Positions 4,674 through 41,350 of a DNA stretch of 42,645 bases are shown one piece after another. The stretch comes from an uncultured Dehalococcoidia bacterium. Lineage in GTDB: Bacteria; Chloroflexota; Dehalococcoidia; Lucifugimonadales; UBA826. The DNA lies in NCBI GenBank assembly GCA_964435605.1, contig CAYTAN010000002.1, forward strand, positions 1 through 42,645, given 5' to 3'. Numbering within the stretch: the stretch's first letter is position 1; the number at the start of each line of letters is the position of its first letter. A program made the translations under genes and the position numbers. Below the pieces are notes generated by a model. It did no database searches, was not told where the DNA came from, and saw only the letters and a program-made list of their open reading frames with translations.

Positions 4674-5003
4674 TTAGTTACCAGGAGGTGAATACAGAAT
4701 GGCTTGCGCCTTTTCCATCGAGCGTTTGGCCTCTTCAGCAGTCATGATACGGCTTATGTTCATTGAATGAACGATTCCTGAGGCACATATTGCCATTACA
4801 AGAGCTTGTATATCAACATCGTTGTCTGGTGCAGTGAACACAATATAAAGCTTCGACTCTCCAACACCTACCCAATAGTGCTCCAAGTCAAAGCCTAAAG
4901 ACTCGAATAATGGTGTGTTACTTGATTTACGATCCTCAGGGTTGTTTATAAAACCTTTGAAAGCCTCTGTTGTGCCATCAATTGTTGCAAGGTAACGGCC
5001 CAT
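4674..5003 (-). CDS. GYD-domain protein
   Basis: 109 aa. MGRYLATIDGTTEAFKGF ... YWVGVGESKLYIVFTAPDN ... ASGIVHS matches the GYD family pattern as I remember it. Confidence 0.65.
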   Translation of the reverse strand: MGRYLATIDGTTEAFKGFINNPEDRKSSNTPLFESLGFDLEHYWVGVGESKLYIVFTAPDNDVDIQALVMAICASGIVHSMNISRIMTAEEAKRSMEKAQAILYSPPGN

Positions 5004-5144
5004 ATTAACTCCTTTTAGTTTAGTTAATGTTAACTTAGTTAAATGTGATAATAACTTAATCTGGTTGCTAATGGTATAAATGATCCATTAATGTTTGAGT
5101 AACGAAAATGGATGCAGTTTAAATTACTGGAGAGGTGTAAAAAT

Positions 5145-5678
5145 ATGGTCTGGATAAAAGAAGATGAGGGTTACGCTGACCTACCTAATGTCATCAAATG
5201 TATGTCAATAAATCCGGAAGTTATGAATGCAGTAATTGAAATGGGACACAAAATTGGGTTCGGGTCTTCCTCTTTATCAAGAGAACAGGAAGAAATCATT
5301 GCGACTGTAGTTTCAGCAATTAATAATTGTGAATATTGAGTTGTTTCTCACGGAGAGTATCTTCGTCAGGCAAGTGGGGACGCTGAATTTGCAGATGCAG
5401 TTATGCATGAATATGGTCTTGCTAATTTTGATGAACAGACGTTAGTAATTGTTGAATATGTAGAAAAACTTACTAAAACTCCCTCTCAAGTTACACGGGA
5501 GGATGTATCTGCGCTAAGGTCTGTTGGGTTGGACGATCAACAAATATTGTCGGTAGTGCTAATTACCTCAATGTATGCTTTTATGAATCGTTTGGCTGAT
5601 GGCCTTGGGGTACAACTAGACAAGGAAAAGAGGGCCTTCGTTGAGAGTTGGTCAAAAAGCCTTTCACCGCCCAATTAG
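5145..5678 (+). CDS. AhpD/carboxymuconolactone-decarboxylase-fold peroxidase-related protein, predicted selenoprotein (TGA 5337-5339 read as Sec in a C-x-x-U motif)
   Basis: Track ORFs 5112-5339 and 5403-5678 share one frame, and the only interruption is TGA 5337-5339. Read-through gives VVSAINNCEY-U-VVSHGEYLRQASGDAEFADAVMHEY..., which matches the family motif N-x-C-x-Y-C-x-x-x-H. The start is placed at ATG 5145 (MVWIKEDEG), with GGAGAGG 9 nt upstream. Confidence 0.75.
5346..5370 (+). promoter_or_regulatory. Candidate bacterial SECIS hairpin
   Basis: Hand fold: lower stem pairs 5346-5348 with 5368-5370, followed by a C/C mismatch. The upper 6-bp stem pairs 5350-5355 with 5361-5366 (A-U, C-G, G-C, G.U, A-U, G-C). 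The apical loop AGUAU (5356-5360) places G-U 20-21 nt after the U of UGA. Confidence 0.4.
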
Positions 5679-5694
5679 TGGTTTCTTGAATAAA

Positions 5695-5889
5695 CTAGAA
5701 TTCAAAGTCTTGGGGATTCACTTTTTGAGATCGTATCCACGAATCTATATCAGATCTGAAGAATCTCCATTGGTGTCCAACTCTATTGGCAGGAATGTCA
5801 CCTGACTTTAGGAGTTTGTAAATAGTCATTCTGTCCAACTGGAGATATTCAGCTAATTCTTTTGTGGTCATCAGATCGTTTGTGGTCAT
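5695..5889 (-). CDS. Excisionase-family/MerR-like helix-turn-helix DNA-binding protein
   Basis: TTKELAEYLQLDRMTIYKLLKSGDIPANRVGHQWRFFRSDIDSWI matches the HTH_17 pattern. The start may instead be the 7th codon (ATG at 5871). Confidence 0.75.
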   Translation of the reverse strand: MTTNDLMTTKELAEYLQLDRMTIYKLLKSGDIPANRVGHQWRFFRSDIDSWIRSQKVNPQDFEF

Positions 5890-6037
5890 ATTCTATATCT
5901 ATCCTTCAAAGTGAATAAACTTAATCATATTAAATCATAAGATACATGTTATGACTAGATTATTTGCAAACTTAAGTTTAAATAGCCAATTTATGCAGGT
6001 AATAGATTCAGAAATATTCCCGAATATTTATATAACT

Positions 6038-7522
6038 TTAACCTGAGTAATTCTTGGTAATCAGAGTGCTGGCTATTCCTGTGGCAGAGATTAGCTGGAG
6101 TGTGCCCATAAGTATAAATACAAATTTCATTCCGCTTATGAAGGCTGTAACTAGGCTGCCAGTATTGCCGGCGTTTAAAACTGCCTCAACGTTTACTTGG
6201 TAACCGCTAGAAATAAGCACTGCCGATACAATCGCAGAGGATAATGCAATACCAGTTACATTGCCTGAGTTCCTTGAAAGGTTAACAAGTGCTGCTATGA
6301 CTCCGTGTTTATCTGAGGGACCAGAAGAGAAAATGGTTGCGCTGTTGGGGGACATAAACATACCTGATCCTGCACTGAAAGTAATTATGCATATGAGAAT
6401 GAACGGTATTGAACTCAGTGCAGACATTGACCCCATCATATATAGGCCAATACTGGCTAAAACTAAACCAGCAAATGTGAAGATTCTTCTGTCGAATTTG
6501 TCCGACAGGATCCCAATAGTGGGACCCAGAATTATCCTACTTATTGCGTTGGGCACGAGCATTACCCCTACTTGAGCAGGATTTAATTTAAGGGCTGCCT
6601 GAAGGTAGAACGGGATTATGAATCTAAAGGATGAGACACCTAGAAACGATAAATAGTTTGCGGTAATACTCAAAGAAAACAGTTTATCTCTAAATAACCG
6701 CAGGTCGAGAAGAGGTGATGTAACCTTCGACTCCCACCATATGAAAAGGGCTACAAGAACAATAAAGAGTATAAATCCTGAAAGAATTTCATAAGATGTC
6801 CAACCGAACTGTGAACCATTTGACAGTGTTAACAGGAATGTTAGTAATGATGCAGTTGAAAGAATTGCTCCCAGCCAATCGTATCGGTTATTTTGCGAAC
6901 CAGTGCCTCTGAATAGAGATGTGTCCAGCACCAATAATGTGGCTACAAAGGCTAATACGCACAAAGGGATGTTGATCCAAAAAACCCATTGCCAGCCAAG
7001 GTAAGTGACTAGTATGCCGCCTAGAATTGGGCCTATGACACCTCCAGTGCCGATAATAGCTCCATGAGCACCAAGGCCTTTTCCTCTTTCTGAATCATCG
7101 AATACAGTCGTGACCATTGCCATGCCTGTCGCCTGAGTCATGGCGGCACCTAATCCTTGCATAACTCTTAATGGAATCATGAACAGCATAATTCTTTGTG
7201 ACCCCAATTGAGACGCTAGGGATGGTGCCGAACCCGCAAGTAATGACATTAATCCGAACAATATTATTCCGGCTAAATACATGGGTTTGCGTCCGATAAT
7301 GTCAGATAGTCTACCCATTGGAAGCAGAAGCACACTTATTGTCAAAGTTTCTGCTAAAACTACCCATTGGATGGTAGTTAATGAAACGCCAAAGTCCTCA
7401 GCGATGGTAGGTAAGGCTATACCAACACTGCCGTGATGGGTGACATTAGTTATTGAGCCAATGGCAACCACTGAAAATACTAACCATTTATAATTTTCTT
7501 TGTATGTTAGTTTAGGAGTCAT
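6038..7522 (-). CDS. MFS transporter, DHA2 (EmrB/QacA-like, 14-TMS) family, copy 1
   Basis: 494 aa and highly hydrophobic. Motifs: GRLSDIIGRKPMY (motif A), QGLGAAM, GPILGGILVTYLGWQWVFWINIP. Confidence 0.85.
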   Translation of the reverse strand: MTPKLTYKENYKWLVFSVVAIGSITNVTHHGSVGIALPTIAEDFGVSLTTIQWVVLAETLTISVLLLPMGRLSDIIGRKPMYLAGIILFGLMSLLAGSAPSLASQLGSQRIMLFMIPLRVMQGLGAAMTQATGMAMVTTVFDDSERGKGLGAHGAIIGTGGVIGPILGGILVTYLGWQWVFWINIPLCVLAFVATLLVLDTSLFRGTGSQNNRYDWLGAILSTASLLTFLLTLSNGSQFGWTSYEILSGFILFIVLVALFIWWESKVTSPLLDLRLFRDKLFSLSITANYLSFLGVSSFRFIIPFYLQAALKLNPAQVGVMLVPNAISRIILGPTIGILSDKFDRRIFTFAGLVLASIGLYMMGSMSALSSIPFILICIITFSAGSGMFMSPNSATIFSSGPSDKHGVIAALVNLSRNSGNVTGIALSSAIVSAVLISSGYQVNVEAVLNAGNTGSLVTAFISGMKFVFILMGTLQLISATGIASTLITKNYSG

Positions 7523-13721: not shown

Positions 13722-14135
13722 ATGAATACGCTAGATCATGTTACAGGAAATTCCAAAGCGATTTTTAATGCTGTTTTATGGAGGCTGTTACCAACATTTG
13801 TAGGTATTTTGGTTTTAACTCCATACCTAGGGGTTCTGCTGGATCATCATTATCTAGATGATGGACCTATGCACAGCCACATTATGGCTGTTGGTACCAA
13901 GCATCATCATTTTGTTACGACCCATGATCATAATGATCCGAACTTAATAGTTGAGACCCCTACCTTTTATAAGAATGGCTTTGCTAACTCTGGCTTTTGC
14001 ACCGATTATCAATGTGTTCATACAGACTTGGTTACGGGCCCGACTGGTCACTTTAATGTCACTTTAGCCAGAAATGATTTTCTTCGAAAAACTTATCCTT
14101 CTCCGGAACTTAAGCCGCCGATATTCGGAATGTGA
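13722..14135 (+). CDS. Hypothetical N-terminally anchored His-rich protein
   Basis: One predicted TM helix (LLPTFVGILVLTPYLGVLL), followed by 9 His in 32 residues (DHHYLDDGPMHSHIMAVGTKHHHFVTTHDHND). The gap after trpB is 8 nt. No family recognised. Confidence 0.55.
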   Translation: MNTLDHVTGNSKAIFNAVLWRLLPTFVGILVLTPYLGVLLDHHYLDDGPMHSHIMAVGTKHHHFVTTHDHNDPNLIVETPTFYKNGFANSGFCTDYQCVHTDLVTGPTGHFNVTLARNDFLRKTYPSPELKPPIFGM

Positions 14136-14184: not shown

Positions 14185-14718
14185 GTGAGTGATTTTAAAC
14201 AGGTAGTACTTGGATTAGGTATTGTGCTGTCTTTTATAGGATGTTTGCAATCTGATGTTTTATATGCGAATGGATCTGTAAAAGTCTACGAAAAGCGCAT
14301 CATAAGTTTCTATGAAATTGGTCTAGGTACTGTGCCAAGCTCTCCGGCTGTTGGTGTCACACACTTTGCTACTTATGTGAAAGATATGGAGGCCGGCTAT
14401 TTACTAAACGATGTTGATGTCATTTTCACGGCAACAGATAATGAATTAGGAAAGCAAATAGGCCCCAACAAAATGACTAGTAGCCTTATGGATCCGAATT
14501 ATTATGAGTTGGATCTAAATTTTGAAACTGAAGGGACCTGGACGGTTAGGCTAATTGTTAATATGGAGTCCAGCTCTCATGAGGTTAGTTACCAGGTATC
14601 TGTGCGTAAGCCTAATCCAATTATCCCTATTCTGACAGCGGCGGTGCTATTGCTGTTTTTGGGTATTTTGGGATTATCTGCAAGGGCCTGGGTAAGGGAA
14701 TACAGAAAAAAGAAATAA
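14185..14718 (+). CDS. Hypothetical exported protein with C-terminal membrane anchor (FixH/YtkA-like beta domain suspected)
   Basis: GTG start. The signal-like N-terminus has a lipobox-like FIGC. The beta-rich body ends in EGTWTVRLIV, followed by a C-terminal TM helix plus REYRKKK. Confidence 0.6.
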   Translation: MSDFKQVVLGLGIVLSFIGCLQSDVLYANGSVKVYEKRIISFYEIGLGTVPSSPAVGVTHFATYVKDMEAGYLLNDVDVIFTATDNELGKQIGPNKMTSSLMDPNYYELDLNFETEGTWTVRLIVNMESSSHEVSYQVSVRKPNPIIPILTAAVLLLFLGILGLSARAWVREYRKKK

Positions 14719-14730
14719 GGCTATCTGGAA

Positions 14731-15555
14731 ATGCTGCTTGGGAACAGAAATCAAGGAAATTTAATCGTGAAGAAATATATATTTATGTTCGTTGCTGTCA
14801 TGGCAATGATTTTAGTTATTGCTTGTAATGAGAGTGAAAACTCAACTTCTAGTGATGTGGCAGGAAACGAAATTTCTAACAACTTGGAGTTTATTGAGCA
14901 TAAGATAGTGCTGGAGAAAGGAGAGTTGAAATCAGAGAGCGAGAAAATCTCCGTAAGTCAGGGAGAGAATGTTAAGTTGGAGTTTGTTTCTGACATGGAA
15001 ATGGAAGTGCATTTACATGGATATGACTTAAAGTTAACCGTAAGTCCGAACAAAGAATCTGTTATGCAGTTTACTGCTGAGGCCACTGGTAGGTTTGTTA
15101 TCACCTCACATGCCGATCAAAGTTCGCATGAATCTCATAAGTCTCATACTGAACATGCTAAGTTATTTGAGTCTGAGACACTTTTGCAGGGGGACAGTTT
15201 TCAATTTGATATAACTGAGGATTTAGATGGAAGCACTATCATTTACCACGATCACATGTCTCATAGTGATTCTGGCACCATAGTTGTGTCGCAAGAACAT
15301 CAAACAGTCGATATGGTGGAGATACGAATTAGTGATTCTGGATTTAGTCCGGCCGAAATTACGGTTGGGCCAGGGACGAGCATTAAATGGATTTCGGATA
15401 AAGCATCCAAAGTTAGGATAACGAGTGGTTCCATTCCGGGGGGATCTCATGACTCACATGGTAAATCTCATGATAAACATGCAGAACATGATAAGCATGG
15501 GGAAAAGGAATCTCACGATGAAAAAACTCTACTGGTTGTTGAAGTGCGGCCATAA
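14731..15555 (+). CDS. Hypothetical His-rich lipoprotein with two cupredoxin-like domains
   Basis: Lipobox VIAC. The second domain, VEIRISDSGFSPAEITVGPGTSIKWISD, resembles cupredoxin/EfeO-N but lacks the type-1 Cu Cys. His runs: SHADQSSHESHKSHTEH, YHDHMSHSD, GGSHDSHGKSHDKHAEHDKHGEKESHDEK. The start may instead be GTG 14767. Confidence 0.65.
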   Translation: MLLGNRNQGNLIVKKYIFMFVAVMAMILVIACNESENSTSSDVAGNEISNNLEFIEHKIVLEKGELKSESEKISVSQGENVKLEFVSDMEMEVHLHGYDLKLTVSPNKESVMQFTAEATGRFVITSHADQSSHESHKSHTEHAKLFESETLLQGDSFQFDITEDLDGSTIIYHDHMSHSDSGTIVVSQEHQTVDMVEIRISDSGFSPAEITVGPGTSIKWISDKASKVRITSGSIPGGSHDSHGKSHDKHAEHDKHGEKESHDEKTLLVVEVRP

Positions 15556-15591: not shown

Positions 15592-17142
15592 ATGATGCTG
15601 AATAAAAAAAGACTAATAACTTCATTATGCTTAGCCTTAATTGCAGTGGTGCTTACTGTGCCATCTGTCTCAGCTCATGGTTTTGGGGAAAGATATGACC
15701 TACCTGTGCCATTAGATTACTTTGTTGTTGGAGCTGCAGCAACGGTAGCTCTTTCTTTCCTCATCATTGCCTTTTTTATTCGTAAAGGAAAGCAAGAATA
15801 TGAATATCCATACCTGAATATAATATTTGGTGTTTTTATATATCGCACCTATAAGACTGTGGGAGGGCTATTAGGTCTATTGGGTGTTTTTTTACTTACG
15901 GCTACTATACTTTCGGGATTATTCGGAACAGAGGATGCACTCGATAATTTTGCACCTACTTTTGTGTGGATTATATGGTGGGTAGGGATAGGTTATGCTG
16001 TAGCTCTACTAGGGAATGTCTGGTTGATATTAAATCCTTGGCTGGTGATATTTGGCTGGATTGAGAGAATATTTGGTAGTTCAAATAAACCAATTTTGAC
16101 TTGGAAAAAGCAATGGGACGCTTGGCCAGCGCTAGCTATATTTTTGTGCTTTGCATGGATAGAAAATGCGTATCCAGGTGCATCAAGTCCAAAAAGTCTT
16201 TCAGTACTGATTCTTTTGTACTCTTTCGTTACCTTTTCGGGAATGACAATTTTTGGCAAACATATATGGCTGAGAAATGGAGATCCTTTTTCAGTCCTTT
16301 TTTCTCTTTTCTCAAGATTCTCTCCCACTGAAATTAGAGTGAAGGCTGATGATCAGCAGCATATTATTTGTCGTGGGTGTAGCTCCGACTGTGAGAGTAA
16401 TTCAGACCTTCCCGACTGTGTCGATTGCTATGAATGTTGGACTAGGTCGAGGTCTGAACACCGGCAATTTAATTTGCGGCCGTGGGCGACAGGATTGTGT
16501 CGTGGAGAACGAGTTACTCCTGCTCTGGTAGCGTTTCATTTGACAGCATTGGCCTCAGTGACTTTTGATGGGTTCAGCGAAACACCAGCCTGGGTAGCGG
16601 TACAGACGTCGTTATGGCCTGTGGTGGACCCTTTGCCCGGCCCAGCTGTAGCGACTTTCAACAGTTTTGGGACATTTCTTTTCCCTCTGTTATTTGGTCT
16701 TTTATACGTCCAGATCTGTGGCTATGTATCAAAATTGTCCAAAGGTGAGATGTCTAAAAATAGTGTGGTGCTTAGTTTTGTATTTTCATTGGTTCCAATC
16801 GCTCTAGCATACAATTTGTCGCATTATCTTTCTTTTCTCTTAATTACTGGACAGCAGATAATACCGTTAATATCTGATCCGCTAGGGGTTGGTTGGGATT
16901 TGTTAGGAACAGCTGATTTTAAGCCTAATATAGCCATTATAAATGCAAGAATTGCCTGGATCGTGTCTATTGTTTCTTTAGTCTCAGGACATGTGGTATC
17001 GGTGTATATTGCGCATGTTATTTCCCTTAGAAGAACAAGTTCCCACAAAATAGCAATTAGAAGTCAATATCCCATGTTGGCCTTAATGGTATTTTACACA
17101 GGTGTTAGTCTGTGGATAATCGCTCAGCCTATAGTCGAATAA
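15592..17142 (+). CDS. Hypothetical polytopic membrane protein with mature N-terminal His and a 6-Cys loop
   Basis: The signal peptide ends in VSA|HGFGERYDLPVPL. At least 10 hydrophobic helices are present. The loop at 16369-16437 carries C-x2-C-x3-C-x8-C-x2-C-x2-C. No family recognised. Confidence 0.7.
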   Translation: MMLNKKRLITSLCLALIAVVLTVPSVSAHGFGERYDLPVPLDYFVVGAAATVALSFLIIAFFIRKGKQEYEYPYLNIIFGVFIYRTYKTVGGLLGLLGVFLLTATILSGLFGTEDALDNFAPTFVWIIWWVGIGYAVALLGNVWLILNPWLVIFGWIERIFGSSNKPILTWKKQWDAWPALAIFLCFAWIENAYPGASSPKSLSVLILLYSFVTFSGMTIFGKHIWLRNGDPFSVLFSLFSRFSPTEIRVKADDQQHIICRGCSSDCESNSDLPDCVDCYECWTRSRSEHRQFNLRPWATGLCRGERVTPALVAFHLTALASVTFDGFSETPAWVAVQTSLWPVVDPLPGPAVATFNSFGTFLFPLLFGLLYVQICGYVSKLSKGEMSKNSVVLSFVFSLVPIALAYNLSHYLSFLLITGQQIIPLISDPLGVGWDLLGTADFKPNIAIINARIAWIVSIVSLVSGHVVSVYIAHVISLRRTSSHKIAIRSQYPMLALMVFYTGVSLWIIAQPIVE

Positions 17143-22494: not shown

Positions 22495-23523
22495 ATGCGC
22501 AAGGCCACTTATCACTCTGCGGGAGTTAACCTAGAAGCCTCAGAACAAGTTAAAAATCAAATTAAGGAATTGGCGGCCAATACCTATGGCCCTGATGTTT
22601 TAGGGGGCGTGGGTGGTTTTGGGGCTATGTACAAGGTTGCTGGTTACAAACAACCTGTTCTTGTATCCAGTACTGACCCGGTTGGAACCAAACTAATGGT
22701 TGCAGGAATGGCCGGCGACTATTCTAATATTGGAATAGACTTGGTAAACGCATGTATAAATGATGTAATTGTCGTCGGAGCGTCACCATTATTCTTTTTG
22801 GATTATATAGCCACGTCCAAGATGAACCCAGAGGTTGTAAATACGGTGGTTTCTGGAATAGCTGAAGCTTGTAAGGAAGTTAACTGTGCATTAATTGGTG
22901 GCGAAACTTCAGAAATGCCCGGTGTGTTTGCCGATAACAACTTCGATATATCCGGATTTATAGTTGGAATAGTTGAAGAACAAGATATGCTTCGTCCCCA
23001 TGACAATATTGAACCAGGAAATATGGTAATTGGACTGCCATCCAATGGGTTACATACTAATGGATATTCGTTGGTCAGGCATATTTTCGAATTGGATAAA
23101 AACCCTCAACCGTTGTTTAATGAAATACAGGAGTTGGGATGCACTTTGGCTCAGGCGTTGCTTGCACCGCATCCGTCTTACTATGAAGCGCTCAAGCCTG
23201 TCCTAAGGTTGTCGAAAGGTATTGCACACATAACCGGGGGTGGATTGTACGAAAATGTTCCCCGCATACTTCCAGATTCTTTGGGCGTGGTCTTCGATTC
23301 AAGTAGTTGGCAGAAACCAAGAATTTTTAATCATATTGAAAAAGCAGGAAATGTAGCGATTGAAGAGATGTACAGGGTTTTCAATATGGGCCTAGGGATG
23401 GTCATAATATGTGATTCCAAAGATGTTGGATCCGTGCTAGCGACGGTACCTGAGTCTCTGGTTGTAGGGGAGGTGATTAGCGAATCTGATCAATCGCGGA
23501 GAGTATCAATTAAAAACATATAA
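22495..23523 (+). CDS. purM: Phosphoribosylformylglycinamidine cyclo-ligase (AIR synthetase)
   Basis: TYHSAGVN, GGFGAMY, STDPVGTKL, GGETSEMPG, ITGGGL. Confidence 0.93.
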   Translation: MRKATYHSAGVNLEASEQVKNQIKELAANTYGPDVLGGVGGFGAMYKVAGYKQPVLVSSTDPVGTKLMVAGMAGDYSNIGIDLVNACINDVIVVGASPLFFLDYIATSKMNPEVVNTVVSGIAEACKEVNCALIGGETSEMPGVFADNNFDISGFIVGIVEEQDMLRPHDNIEPGNMVIGLPSNGLHTNGYSLVRHIFELDKNPQPLFNEIQELGCTLAQALLAPHPSYYEALKPVLRLSKGIAHITGGGLYENVPRILPDSLGVVFDSSSWQKPRIFNHIEKAGNVAIEEMYRVFNMGLGMVIICDSKDVGSVLATVPESLVVGEVISESDQSRRVSIKNI

Positions 23524-39807: not shown

Positions 39808-39897
39808 TGGCGGAGGGTGTGGGATTCGAACCCACGATACCCGTGAAGGTATGCCAGTTTTCAAGACTGGTGCATTCGTCCACTCTGCCAACCCTCC
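39808..39897 (-). tRNA. tRNA-Ser (anticodon UGA), class II with long variable arm, CCA encoded
   Basis: Hand-folded from the reverse complement. Acceptor GGAGGGT/ACCCTCC; D arm GCA-GAGTGGACGAA-TGC. Anticodon arm CCAGT-CTTGAAA-ACTGG; variable arm ATACC-TTCACG-GGTAT. T arm GTGGG-TTCGAAT-CCCAC; discriminator G followed by CCA. Confidence 0.93.
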
Positions 39898-40002: not shown

Positions 40003-40785
40003 TCAAACGAAAGGCCATGGAACGTCTCTATTGGGATCCAAAATAGGTATGGTAGGATCATTCAGCATGGCATTGATCCTACTCGTTAAGGCTTCAATTT
40101 CTATCTCGGAAGTTAGAGATAGCATTTCTTCGTAAAATTCATTTCTTTCGTCAATTGATCTTTTTAAGGAGTCTAAGCTTTTCATCAAAACAGGGCTGAT
40201 TTTTTTGCCACAATACTCCAGCATGACTGTTCTCAGCTTGAATGTGTGATGGAAGGTAAGACCGTGGTCAATGGACCATATGGTTCCATGTTGATCGACG
40301 AGGCAGTGCCCCCCCTTGCGATCAGCATTGTTCGCTAGGAGGTCGAAAGCGGCAATCGGTGCGAGTTCTTCCTTTAATGTATCACGCATTTCAAAGTAAG
40401 TAATTCTGGGATCACAATCGATATAGAGCTGTACAGATCCTATACCATAGGGCCCATCTCTTATAATCGTTAATGGTACGTTGGGCCAGCCTAGTTCTTT
40501 ACTTAGCACATAAGTCGCTCTTTCCCGTTTATACAGTGTGCCGCTTGGAAAGTCATGCAGCGGGCGTTCACCGTCACGGGGTTTGTAAATTGCTCTTATG
40601 CATTTACCGTCCTCTACTGACAACCAAATCATAAAGGTGTAGTTAGAGCCCCAGGGCATGGTGTGGCCGCCTATAAACTCACCGTTCACCAGTATATCGT
40701 TTGCCATTTTTTCTGTAGGCTCAATGATTTCCGCTTCAGGAGAGGGGAAATAATCTCGAGGATCTTTATTTTCTAGTGAAGACAT
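40003..40785 (-). CDS. SCO1664-family protein (PI3/PI4-kinase-like fold, function unknown)
   Basis: GSNYTFMIWL, IYKPRDGERPLHDFP, FDLLANNADRKGGHCL, and IDHGLTFH (kinase-like catalytic and DxG-type motifs). Start set at ATG 40785; the track ORF start at 40896 would overlap the DUF3090 gene by 65 nt. Confidence 0.75.
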   Translation of the reverse strand: MSSLENKDPRDYFPSPEAEIIEPTEKMANDILVNGEFIGGHTMPWGSNYTFMIWLSVEDGKCIRAIYKPRDGERPLHDFPSGTLYKRERATYVLSKELGWPNVPLTIIRDGPYGIGSVQLYIDCDPRITYFEMRDTLKEELAPIAAFDLLANNADRKGGHCLVDQHGTIWSIDHGLTFHHTFKLRTVMLEYCGKKISPVLMKSLDSLKRSIDERNEFYEEMLSLTSEIEIEALTSRINAMLNDPTIPILDPNRDVPWPFV

Positions 40786-40831
40786 ATTAGACCCAAAGTT
40801 TGCATAATATCTGTCGTATTTTCGCCCGTGT

Positions 40832-41350
40832 TTAGAGAAGGTCTTGTGGGTTCTTTGAGTGGCCATTCTGCCTTGGGCATGAGTGTCCCGTAGCATCCAT
40901 TGGGCGTGAACAAAGTGGGCAGTTTGGCCGGCCAGAAGCCACTATTTCAAGACCAATGTTTGCGAATTCAGCGATTAGTTCTCTAGGTAACCAGACTCTT
41001 ATCGAAGGCTCATCATTGTCGTCTTCAGGATCGTGGGCATCTACTATGAACATTCCCGTATTAGGGTTGTGCCCAAATGCCAATCTGGTAGCCTTGAATT
41101 CTAAGTTTGTTAACCCTTGAGCTTCTAGATGCGTCGGAGGATCATCCAGTGCAGTGCTACTTTCGGTGGTTTCTTTAGATAGCTGGACCATGGCCATACA
41201 CAATTCTGCTAGTTGTTCCTTTTCTAGCCAGACTTTTGCATTACTGCTTCCGCTGTCGACGTTAAAACGAAATGTTCTCATGCCCGGCTCTCCGAAGGTT
41301 TCGGGCAAGAATTTACTTACTTGTGTGAATTCATTTAAAGGTCCGGCCAT
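40832..41350 (-). CDS. DUF3090-family protein (function unknown)
   Basis: FGEPGMRTFRF, the acidic middle region, and the C-terminal motif GRPNCPLCSRPMDATGHSCPRQNGH typical of the family. Confidence 0.8.
   Translation of the reverse strand: MAGPLNEFTQVSKFLPETFGEPGMRTFRFNVDSGSSNAKVWLEKEQLAELCMAMVQLSKETTESSTALDDPPTHLEAQGLTNLEFKATRLAFGHNPNTGMFIVDAHDPEDDNDEPSIRVWLPRELIAEFANIGLEIVASGRPNCPLCSRPMDATGHSCPRQNGHSKNPQDLL

Follow-up and report, generated by a model that had tools for sequence, protein, structure and literature searches.

A stretch of 42,645 nt from an uncultured Dehalococcoidia bacterium, referred to here as the window, carries at positions 5145–5678 of the forward strand a gene whose reading frame is broken by a single UGA. 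With a probability of about 0.93, this gene encodes one 177-residue AhpD-like oxidoreductase of the TIGR01926 branch, in which residue 65 is selenocysteine (Sec) inserted by means of a bacterial Sec insertion sequence (SECIS). The two open reading frames (ORFs) listed for the locus on the forward strand, 5112–5339 and 5403–5678, share a common frame, and the TGA at 5337–5339 is the sole stop between them. The features on which the reading is based are the following.

5129–5135, forward strand: GGAGAGG, a Shine-Dalgarno-like sequence 9 nt upstream of the ATG at 5145, with a presumed role in ribosome binding
5145–5678, forward strand: complete gene of the predicted AhpD-like (TIGR01926) selenoprotein, 177 codons plus the stop codon TAG at 5676–5678, with Sec at codon 65
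5292–5294, forward strand: codon of Glu50, at the proton-relay Glu position, invariant in the homolog alignment A1
5328–5330, forward strand: TGT codon of Cys62, first residue of the C-x-x-U motif, invariant in A1
5337–5339, forward strand: in-frame UGA, predicted Sec codon of residue 65, in a conserved TGA column that is aligned to Cys in 2OYO and 6K40
5349–5351, forward strand: CAC codon of His69, relay histidine of C-x-x-U-x-x-x-H, invariant in A1; the hairpin begins at the second base of this codon
5350–5366, forward strand: predicted core of the bacterial SECIS, a 17-nt hairpin ACGGAGA-GUA-UCUUCGU that starts 10 nt past the UGA

Reading frame, protein family and active site

The ATG at 5145 is the likely start codon and is favored over the ATG at 5112, since the homologs, with N-termini of the form M-[VSPA]-W-I-[KE]-E, begin at the same place and the GGAGAGG element lies upstream of it. 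The sequence around the stop reads N-N-C-E-Y-[TGA]-V-V-S-H-G-E-Y-L. A promoter and terminator scan of 4950–6050 gave no signal exceeding the shuffle expectation.

When the read-through protein is scored with Cys entered in place of Sec, it reaches 130.8 bits against the TIGR01926 profile ("peroxidase-related enzyme"; curated cutoff 81.8), matching profile positions 27–177 of 178, and it likewise exceeds the cutoffs of the Pfam CMD family PF02627 (46.1 bits versus 23) and of the AhpD core profile TIGR00778 (42.1 bits versus 27.8). The canonical AhpD profile TIGR00777 gives only 22.7 bits versus a cutoff of 191.95, and NF041238 (AhpD_rel_CFYUT) 66 bits versus 175 with a match to just the C-terminal half of its 357 positions, and as both scores are far under their cutoffs the protein is AhpD-like and not an AhpD ortholog. 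By sequence, the solved structures 2OYO, 6K40, 2PFX, 3C1L and 2PRR are homologous with E-values from 1e-27 to 2e-15, the closest being 2OYO (1e-27) and 6K40, the DR1765 protein of Deinococcus radiodurans (1e-26).

The C-L/V-Y-C-A-V-S-H-G stretch of 2OYO and 6K40 aligns to C-E-Y-[UGA]-V-V-S-H-G, which places the TGA column at the second Cys of the motif, and Cys stands opposite this column also in the database proteins P0070, P0074, P0075 and P0077. The remaining active-site positions are strictly kept: A1 shows no variation at E50, C62, Y64 and H69, in the layout E-12-C-x-Y-[C/U]-3-H with the UGA at position 65, and the residue at the Cys62 position is Cys in 82/82 distinct TGA-bearing sequences. 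By analogy with the homologs, the protein would function as a thiol/selenol oxidoreductase. The first-pass annotation of this locus, made from the sequence alone, had proposed one frame interrupted by this TGA only, a full-length AhpD/CMD protein of about 177 residues, and a TGA at the second redox Cys of the family, and all three proposals agree with the frame and stops as read in the sequence, with the profile scores, and with the aligned Cys residues.

Conservation of the UGA and of the downstream hairpin

The in-frame TGA is not a peculiarity of a single assembly. When each GTDB species was represented by a single genome, 80 loci were obtained, and the column is TGA in 78 of these species representatives and Gly in the remaining two. 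By their labels, the 78 TGA loci belong to Dehalococcoidia/SAR202, with one from SAR324, several from Binatia and one labelled Thermodesulfobacteriota, and they span 39–87% amino-acid identity, the closest representative being 87% identical to the window protein. The same in-frame TGA is found in 8/8 metagenome contigs examined (L001–L008). Within the window's own species it is present in 10/10 independent assemblies of 98.7–99.6% nucleotide identity (from ALOHA, BATS, TARA and two NCBI metagenome-assembled genome (MAG) assemblies), which have no differences at all within the stretch from the UGA to the hairpin, and it is likewise present in 10/10 assemblies of the sister species. The MAGs with this gene include GCA_025941885.1 and GCA_025944025.1 for the window's species and GCA_002717465.1 for the sister species. 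The Tyr codon just 5′ of the UGA (5334–5336) is TAT in 80/82 distinct sequences from the window and the loci L001–L088, and it is retained even in GC-rich genomes that favor TAC at the other Tyr codons of this gene (44:13 and 58:14), which suggests a constraint on the base preceding a Sec-UGA.

The hairpin at 5350–5366 can be read in two ways, either as 7 base pairs closed by a GUA loop or as 6 base pairs with an AGUAU loop, and the G-U of the loop lies 20–21 nt from the U of the UGA. The pairing is well kept in relatives. When the seven pairs are scored in 68 distinct sequences (476 pair cells), 98.5% of the cells are standard, while sliding the 3′ partner reduces this to 43–60%, and 87/87 TGA forms make 6 or 7 of the 7 pairs. 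Compensatory changes are seen at pair 17–27, where G-C is replaced by C-G in Binatia through a Gly-to-Ala change in one arm and a synonymous Leu change in the other, and at pair 20–24, where G-C and A-U alternate. The same helix is predicted independently in the RNAalifold consensus. The constraint is also visible in codon usage: over codons −20 to +30 relative to the UGA, synonymous entropy in the 82 sequences is near its maximum except at the TAT (−1) and at +4 to +9, where near-fixed codons occur (CAC in 81/82, GGA or GGG only, GGG in 58/58, and CGT in 77/82).

Published criteria for bacterial SECIS (bSECIS) elements, as quoted in PMC13188914, comprise a loop of 3–9 nt, a stem of 4–16 bp, a G at loop position 1 or 2, a distance of 16–37 nt from the UGA and a minimum free energy (MFE) of −7.5 kcal/mol or lower. 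The hairpin lies within these published limits, with a 3–5 nt loop, a 6–7 bp stem and a UGA-to-loop distance of 16–17 nt, and the A-G-U-A-U loop fits the pattern N1-G-[G/U]-N-N2. Folding the 24-nt core with flanks gives an MFE of −7.5 kcal/mol, which is borderline with respect to the threshold; the values are −11.2 kcal/mol for 48 nt counted from the UGA and −6.2 kcal/mol for the 23-nt segment 5347–5369 alone. Of the hairpin originally drawn in the first-pass annotation, the core at 5350–5366 and the loop G-U at 20–21 nt are thus retained, and its geometry, then called close to the classical bacterial one, is borne out by the conservation, the compensatory changes and the published values; the additional 3-bp extension below a C/C mismatch (5346–5348/5368–5370) was rejected as it lacks conservation in relatives. 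Another lower stem, formed by nucleotides 6–10 and 32–36 after the UGA, is present in the fold of the window sequence and was likewise discarded, being unsupported by the consensus fold.

Alternative readings of the UGA

Several results have to be weighed against Sec insertion at residue 65. The single-sequence fold of the 64 nt at 5337–5400, the segment for which folding had been suggested at the outset, is no stabler than its shuffles (z = 0.23); by itself such a fold is uninformative, whereas the comparative fold recovers the helix, and the hairpin exceeds chance by virtue of the comparative data (pairing, compensation and codon constraint) and not of thermodynamics. A permissive scan of 5300–5450 matched no Rfam SECIS family and returned noise matches only. 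The nearest full-length database homologs (P0002, P0004–P0007 and P0009; L076 and L077) have Gly at the Sec column. Finally, no selA, selB or selD homolog and no tRNA-Sec occurs in the window, the flanks of the relatives (about 1.6 Mb) or the next 10 kb, a negative that is uninformative because the searches covered only part of the genome. In these searches, the SelA, SelB and SelD proteins of E. coli, used as tblastn queries, had zero matches at 1e-5 in the window and in L001–L090 (the same ~1.6 Mb), no tRNA-Sec was found in the window or in 60 relative loci, and the 10 kb past the window end contain nuo genes, a transporter and others, with no sel genes among them.

Two candidates for Sec machinery inside the window were considered and rejected. 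Rfam on the whole window at the gathering threshold yields one tRNA only, at 39808–39897 on the reverse strand, which is a 90-nt tRNA-Ser with the anticodon UGA that reads UCA codons; its long variable arm gives it a superficial likeness to tRNA-Sec. The AIRS-family protein at 22495–23523 is not SelD but PurM, located within a purF-purN-purM-purH row.

The homologs with Gly at the column form a separate group (L076 9580, L077 10196, L089 and L090, together with P0002, P0004–P0007 and P0009) of 41–46% identity. Their Gly codon is GGA or GGG, one base off TGA, and the motif is C-R-Y-G, or S-R-Y-G in L077. In the first-pass annotation a residue other than Cys at this column was considered grounds for abandoning Sec; such a residue does occur, in this separate group, while Cys is found in 2OYO, 6K40 and the four database proteins named above. 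Three of the four Gly forms keep the HGGFLR peptide that most Sec forms have, written in other codons, and make 4, 4 and 6 of the 7 hairpin pairs, and the fourth (HSGFLR) makes 3 of 7. The hairpin thus appears to be mostly lost in the Gly forms even where the peptide is unchanged, and the group may be regarded as a natural control for the SECIS role. The apparent exchange of Sec for Gly instead of Cys at a catalytic position is itself unusual.

A first alternative is that the UGA is read as Gly, Cys or Trp, through reassignment of the code, a suppressor tRNA or near-cognate decoding, and this is considered very unlikely. The Gly group would be in line with it, as would the fact that Sec machinery was not observed in the parts of the genome searched. 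However, TGA terminates 6/37 Pfam-supported genes of the window, including those ending at 741–743 and 1662–1664, which had already been pointed out as ordinary stops, and an internal in-frame TGA occurs in none of the 37; the genetic code is therefore standard. The 42.6 kb contain no further credible gene split by a TGA, as each other candidate lies inside a larger ORF in another frame or on the other strand. Moreover, a hairpin at SECIS distance with a loop G-U is constrained only in the TGA forms, which is predicted by SelB-dependent decoding and not by general read-through. The column also coincides with the catalytic position of CxxC, at which Sec and Cys as a rule replace each other (PMC1088965), and the class Dehalococcoidia has selenoprotein-rich genomes with the Sec pathway: 46–49 selenoprotein genes are reported for Dehalococcoidia MAGs in Table 2 of PMC13326102, the underlying BSepDB comprising Sec-pathway species only.

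A still less probable alternative is genuine termination at the UGA, giving a 64-residue N-terminal peptide and a separate 91-residue protein starting at the ATG at 5403, possibly as a split enzyme. An ATG does follow the TGA by 63 nt, and many relatives have a downstream in-frame ATG, but the intervening sequence does not behave as a spacer. In a codon comparison of the window with the sister species (80% nucleotide identity), the three parts of the gene differ as follows.

Codons 1–64: 29 synonymous and 5 amino-acid differences
Codons 66–86, from the TGA to the next ATG: 8 synonymous and 0 amino-acid differences
Codons 87–177: 37 synonymous and 17 amino-acid differences

Given these counts, and since the invariant His69 lies inside the segment, codons 66–86 are, as judged from the sequence comparison, coding sequence under purifying selection and no spacer, as the family-like appearance of these 21 codons had led the first-pass annotation to claim. 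In addition, the downstream ATG is found at different places in different sequences (it opens MHEYG in the window and MASIVMQ in others), the ATG at 5403 has no evident Shine-Dalgarno-like sequence ahead of it, and the conserved hairpin occupies the position of a SECIS. As for a pseudogene or a sequencing or assembly error, that is, an ordinary CxxC gene in which a nonsense mutation arose recently or a TGC or TGT was mis-called, the two fragments given by gene callers and the sel genes unseen in the regions searched are what it would predict, but it is excluded for practical purposes since the TGA is shared by the own-species and sister-species assemblies and by 78/80 representatives over several phyla, both halves are under purifying selection, and a nonsense mutation is not expected to persist down to 39% protein identity.

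For the selenoprotein reading, the following course of events is proposed. A ribosome would arrive at the UGA at 5337–5339, where the hairpin at 5350–5366 with its loop G-U, serving as the bacterial SECIS, would recruit the SelB-GTP-Sec-tRNA(Sec) complex, so that Sec would be inserted in place of termination and translation would run on to the TAG at 5676–5678. In the protein, Cys62-x-Tyr64-Sec65 would be placed in an AhpD proton-relay setting with Glu50 and His69, and the enzyme would cycle between the selenol/thiol and selenenylsulfide states, passing reducing equivalents to a peroxiredoxin-type partner or straight to peroxides, by analogy with the characterized AhpD-like proteins. The second Cys of M. 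tuberculosis AhpD (Cys133) reportedly attacks the partner; if so, the Sec of the window protein would be in the nucleophilic position. We infer actual Sec insertion, the presence of selA, selB, selC and selD, and a redox partner and substrate for the enzyme.

The hairpin is found at the same offset from the UGA across phyla, in L079 (SAR324), in L080–L085, L087 and L088 (Binatia) and in L086, at about 40% protein identity. Over the 84 nt surrounding the UGA, L086, labelled Thermodesulfobacteriota, hardly differs from the Binatia sequences, and because of this near-identity its taxon label may be a binning artefact. Retention of the hairpin between phyla would fit a horizontal transfer in which the gene and its SECIS moved jointly. 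A fuller scenario, in which the gene and the 17-nt SECIS move between phyla as a unit and Sec was replaced by Gly in the separate group, with most of the hairpin lost afterwards, is offered tentatively and is on balance unlikely. Should the Gly forms be active, at least one function of the AhpD-like family would not require the second redox residue, and the change from Sec to Gly would then constitute an undescribed route of selenoprotein loss.

Annotation, gene neighborhood and relation to known systems

Every public gene call inspected (L099–L119) splits the gene at the TGA, either into fragments of 64 and 91 residues or into fragments of about 107 residues, so that the mis-annotation anticipated for this gene is indeed found in the public record. 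More than 60 database clusters (at 90% identity; P0010–P0067) are C-terminal fragments with no Pfam assignment; in the protein search these appear as about 60 clusters of C-terminal fragments of ~107 residues, together with a few that start right after the stop, and several are named SAR202. The practical value of the present analysis is therefore an annotation fix for a split gene. Counted as one selenoprotein, the gene identifies an abundant SAR202 lineage of the deep ocean as one that uses selenium, and the conserved SECIS alignment, with its compensatory changes and the Gly forms as a control, could help to train SECIS predictors.

The gene order around the locus is MoaA, an RNase H-MoaC protein, an MR_MLE enolase, an RRM protein, the selenoprotein gene, a convergent HTH_17 gene and an MFS transporter, and much of the window gene order recurs in relatives. 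This order assigns the window to marine SAR202. The immediate neighbor is as follows.

5695–5889, reverse strand: HTH_17 protein of 64 residues, convergent to the selenoprotein gene with a 16-nt gap

Between the window and the sister species this protein has 100% amino-acid identity at 81% nucleotide identity, all 37/37 differences being synonymous. Throughout the close marine SAR202 clade it is the adjacent convergent neighbor (19/19 loci), but it is so in 0 of the more distant TGA-bearing loci, and with adjacency confined to those 19 loci it was rejected as a universal partner; as a speculation, it could be a redox-responsive partner of the selenoprotein.

Elsewhere in the window, positions 750–1664 of the forward strand form a single 304-residue ORF with an RNase H domain (residues 5–126) followed by MoaC (159–293), where in the relatives L001 and L002 two overlapping genes are called instead, RNase_H of 142 residues and MoaC of 195 residues; the difference could be due to a fusion, a frameshift or gene calling. 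Three ORFs, at 13722–14135 and 15592–17142 on the forward strand and at 40003–40896 on the reverse strand (137, 516 and 297 residues, respectively), lack any Pfam match at E ≤ 1e-4; the two on the forward strand adjoin YtkA-like and cupredoxin-like genes (14185–15555) and may belong to a copper-related cluster.

Among the characterized AhpD-like proteins, the spacing of E50, C62, Y64, U65 and H69 is the same as that of E36, C48, Y50, C51 and H55 in PA0269 (PDB 2O4D), and in M. tuberculosis AhpD the relay counterparts are Glu118, Cys130, His132, Cys133 and His137 (PMC3141380). The window protein is nevertheless no ortholog of this canonical AhpD, given its TIGR00777 score (22.7 bits against the 191.95 cutoff); AhpC and lipoamide are candidates for its partner. 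As in the SECIS of E. coli fdhF, the hairpin lies within the coding sequence after the UGA and has a small apical loop with a G-U, but it has no sequence similarity to the fdhF element, no bulged U and a loop of 3–5 nt, and its binding by SelB is a prediction. The minimal SECIS of E. coli is a 17-nt upper stem-loop located 11 nt from the UGA.

Closer in sequence are DR1765 (6K40) and its relative from D. geothermalis (2OYO), with about 155 residues aligned and the shared motif N-x-C-x-Y-[C/U]-x-V-S-H-G. Unlike the window protein, the Deinococcus proteins use Cys, with neither a UGA nor a SECIS, and their chains of 196 and 197 residues are about 20 residues longer than the 177 found here. D. 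radiodurans becomes more sensitive to H2O2 when DR1765 is deleted, and for complementation the cysteines of the CxxC motif are important (PMC8945050).

The closest known system is the marine "AhpD-like 1" family. The first report of AhpD-like CxxU selenoproteins, of COG2128, comprised 27 sequences of the Sargasso Sea (Zhang, Fomenko & Gladyshev 2005, PMC1088965). They ranked as the fourth most abundant selenoprotein family in GOS with 299 sequences, again under COG2128 (Zhang & Gladyshev 2008, PMC2398784), and a 2026 review includes them under TIGR01926 (PMC13188914), in full accord with the initial statement that the family was already known from marine metagenomes. The window gene shares with this family a TIGR01926 score above the cutoff, a CxxU motif in which Sec takes the second redox position, the marine habitat, the COG2128 label (carried by the close relative P0008), and, immediately 3′ of the UGA, a SECIS-like hairpin whose small apical loop contains a G. 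In the literature, no paper was found that names SAR202 together with the AhpD-like selenoprotein family, and nothing of substance sets the window gene apart from those of the marine surveys, beyond its SAR202/Dehalococcoidia host. The find opens no new biological question, as the family, the motif and the mechanism have been known since 2005, and what is new about the SAR202 gene is the attribution to a host and not the kind of selenoprotein.

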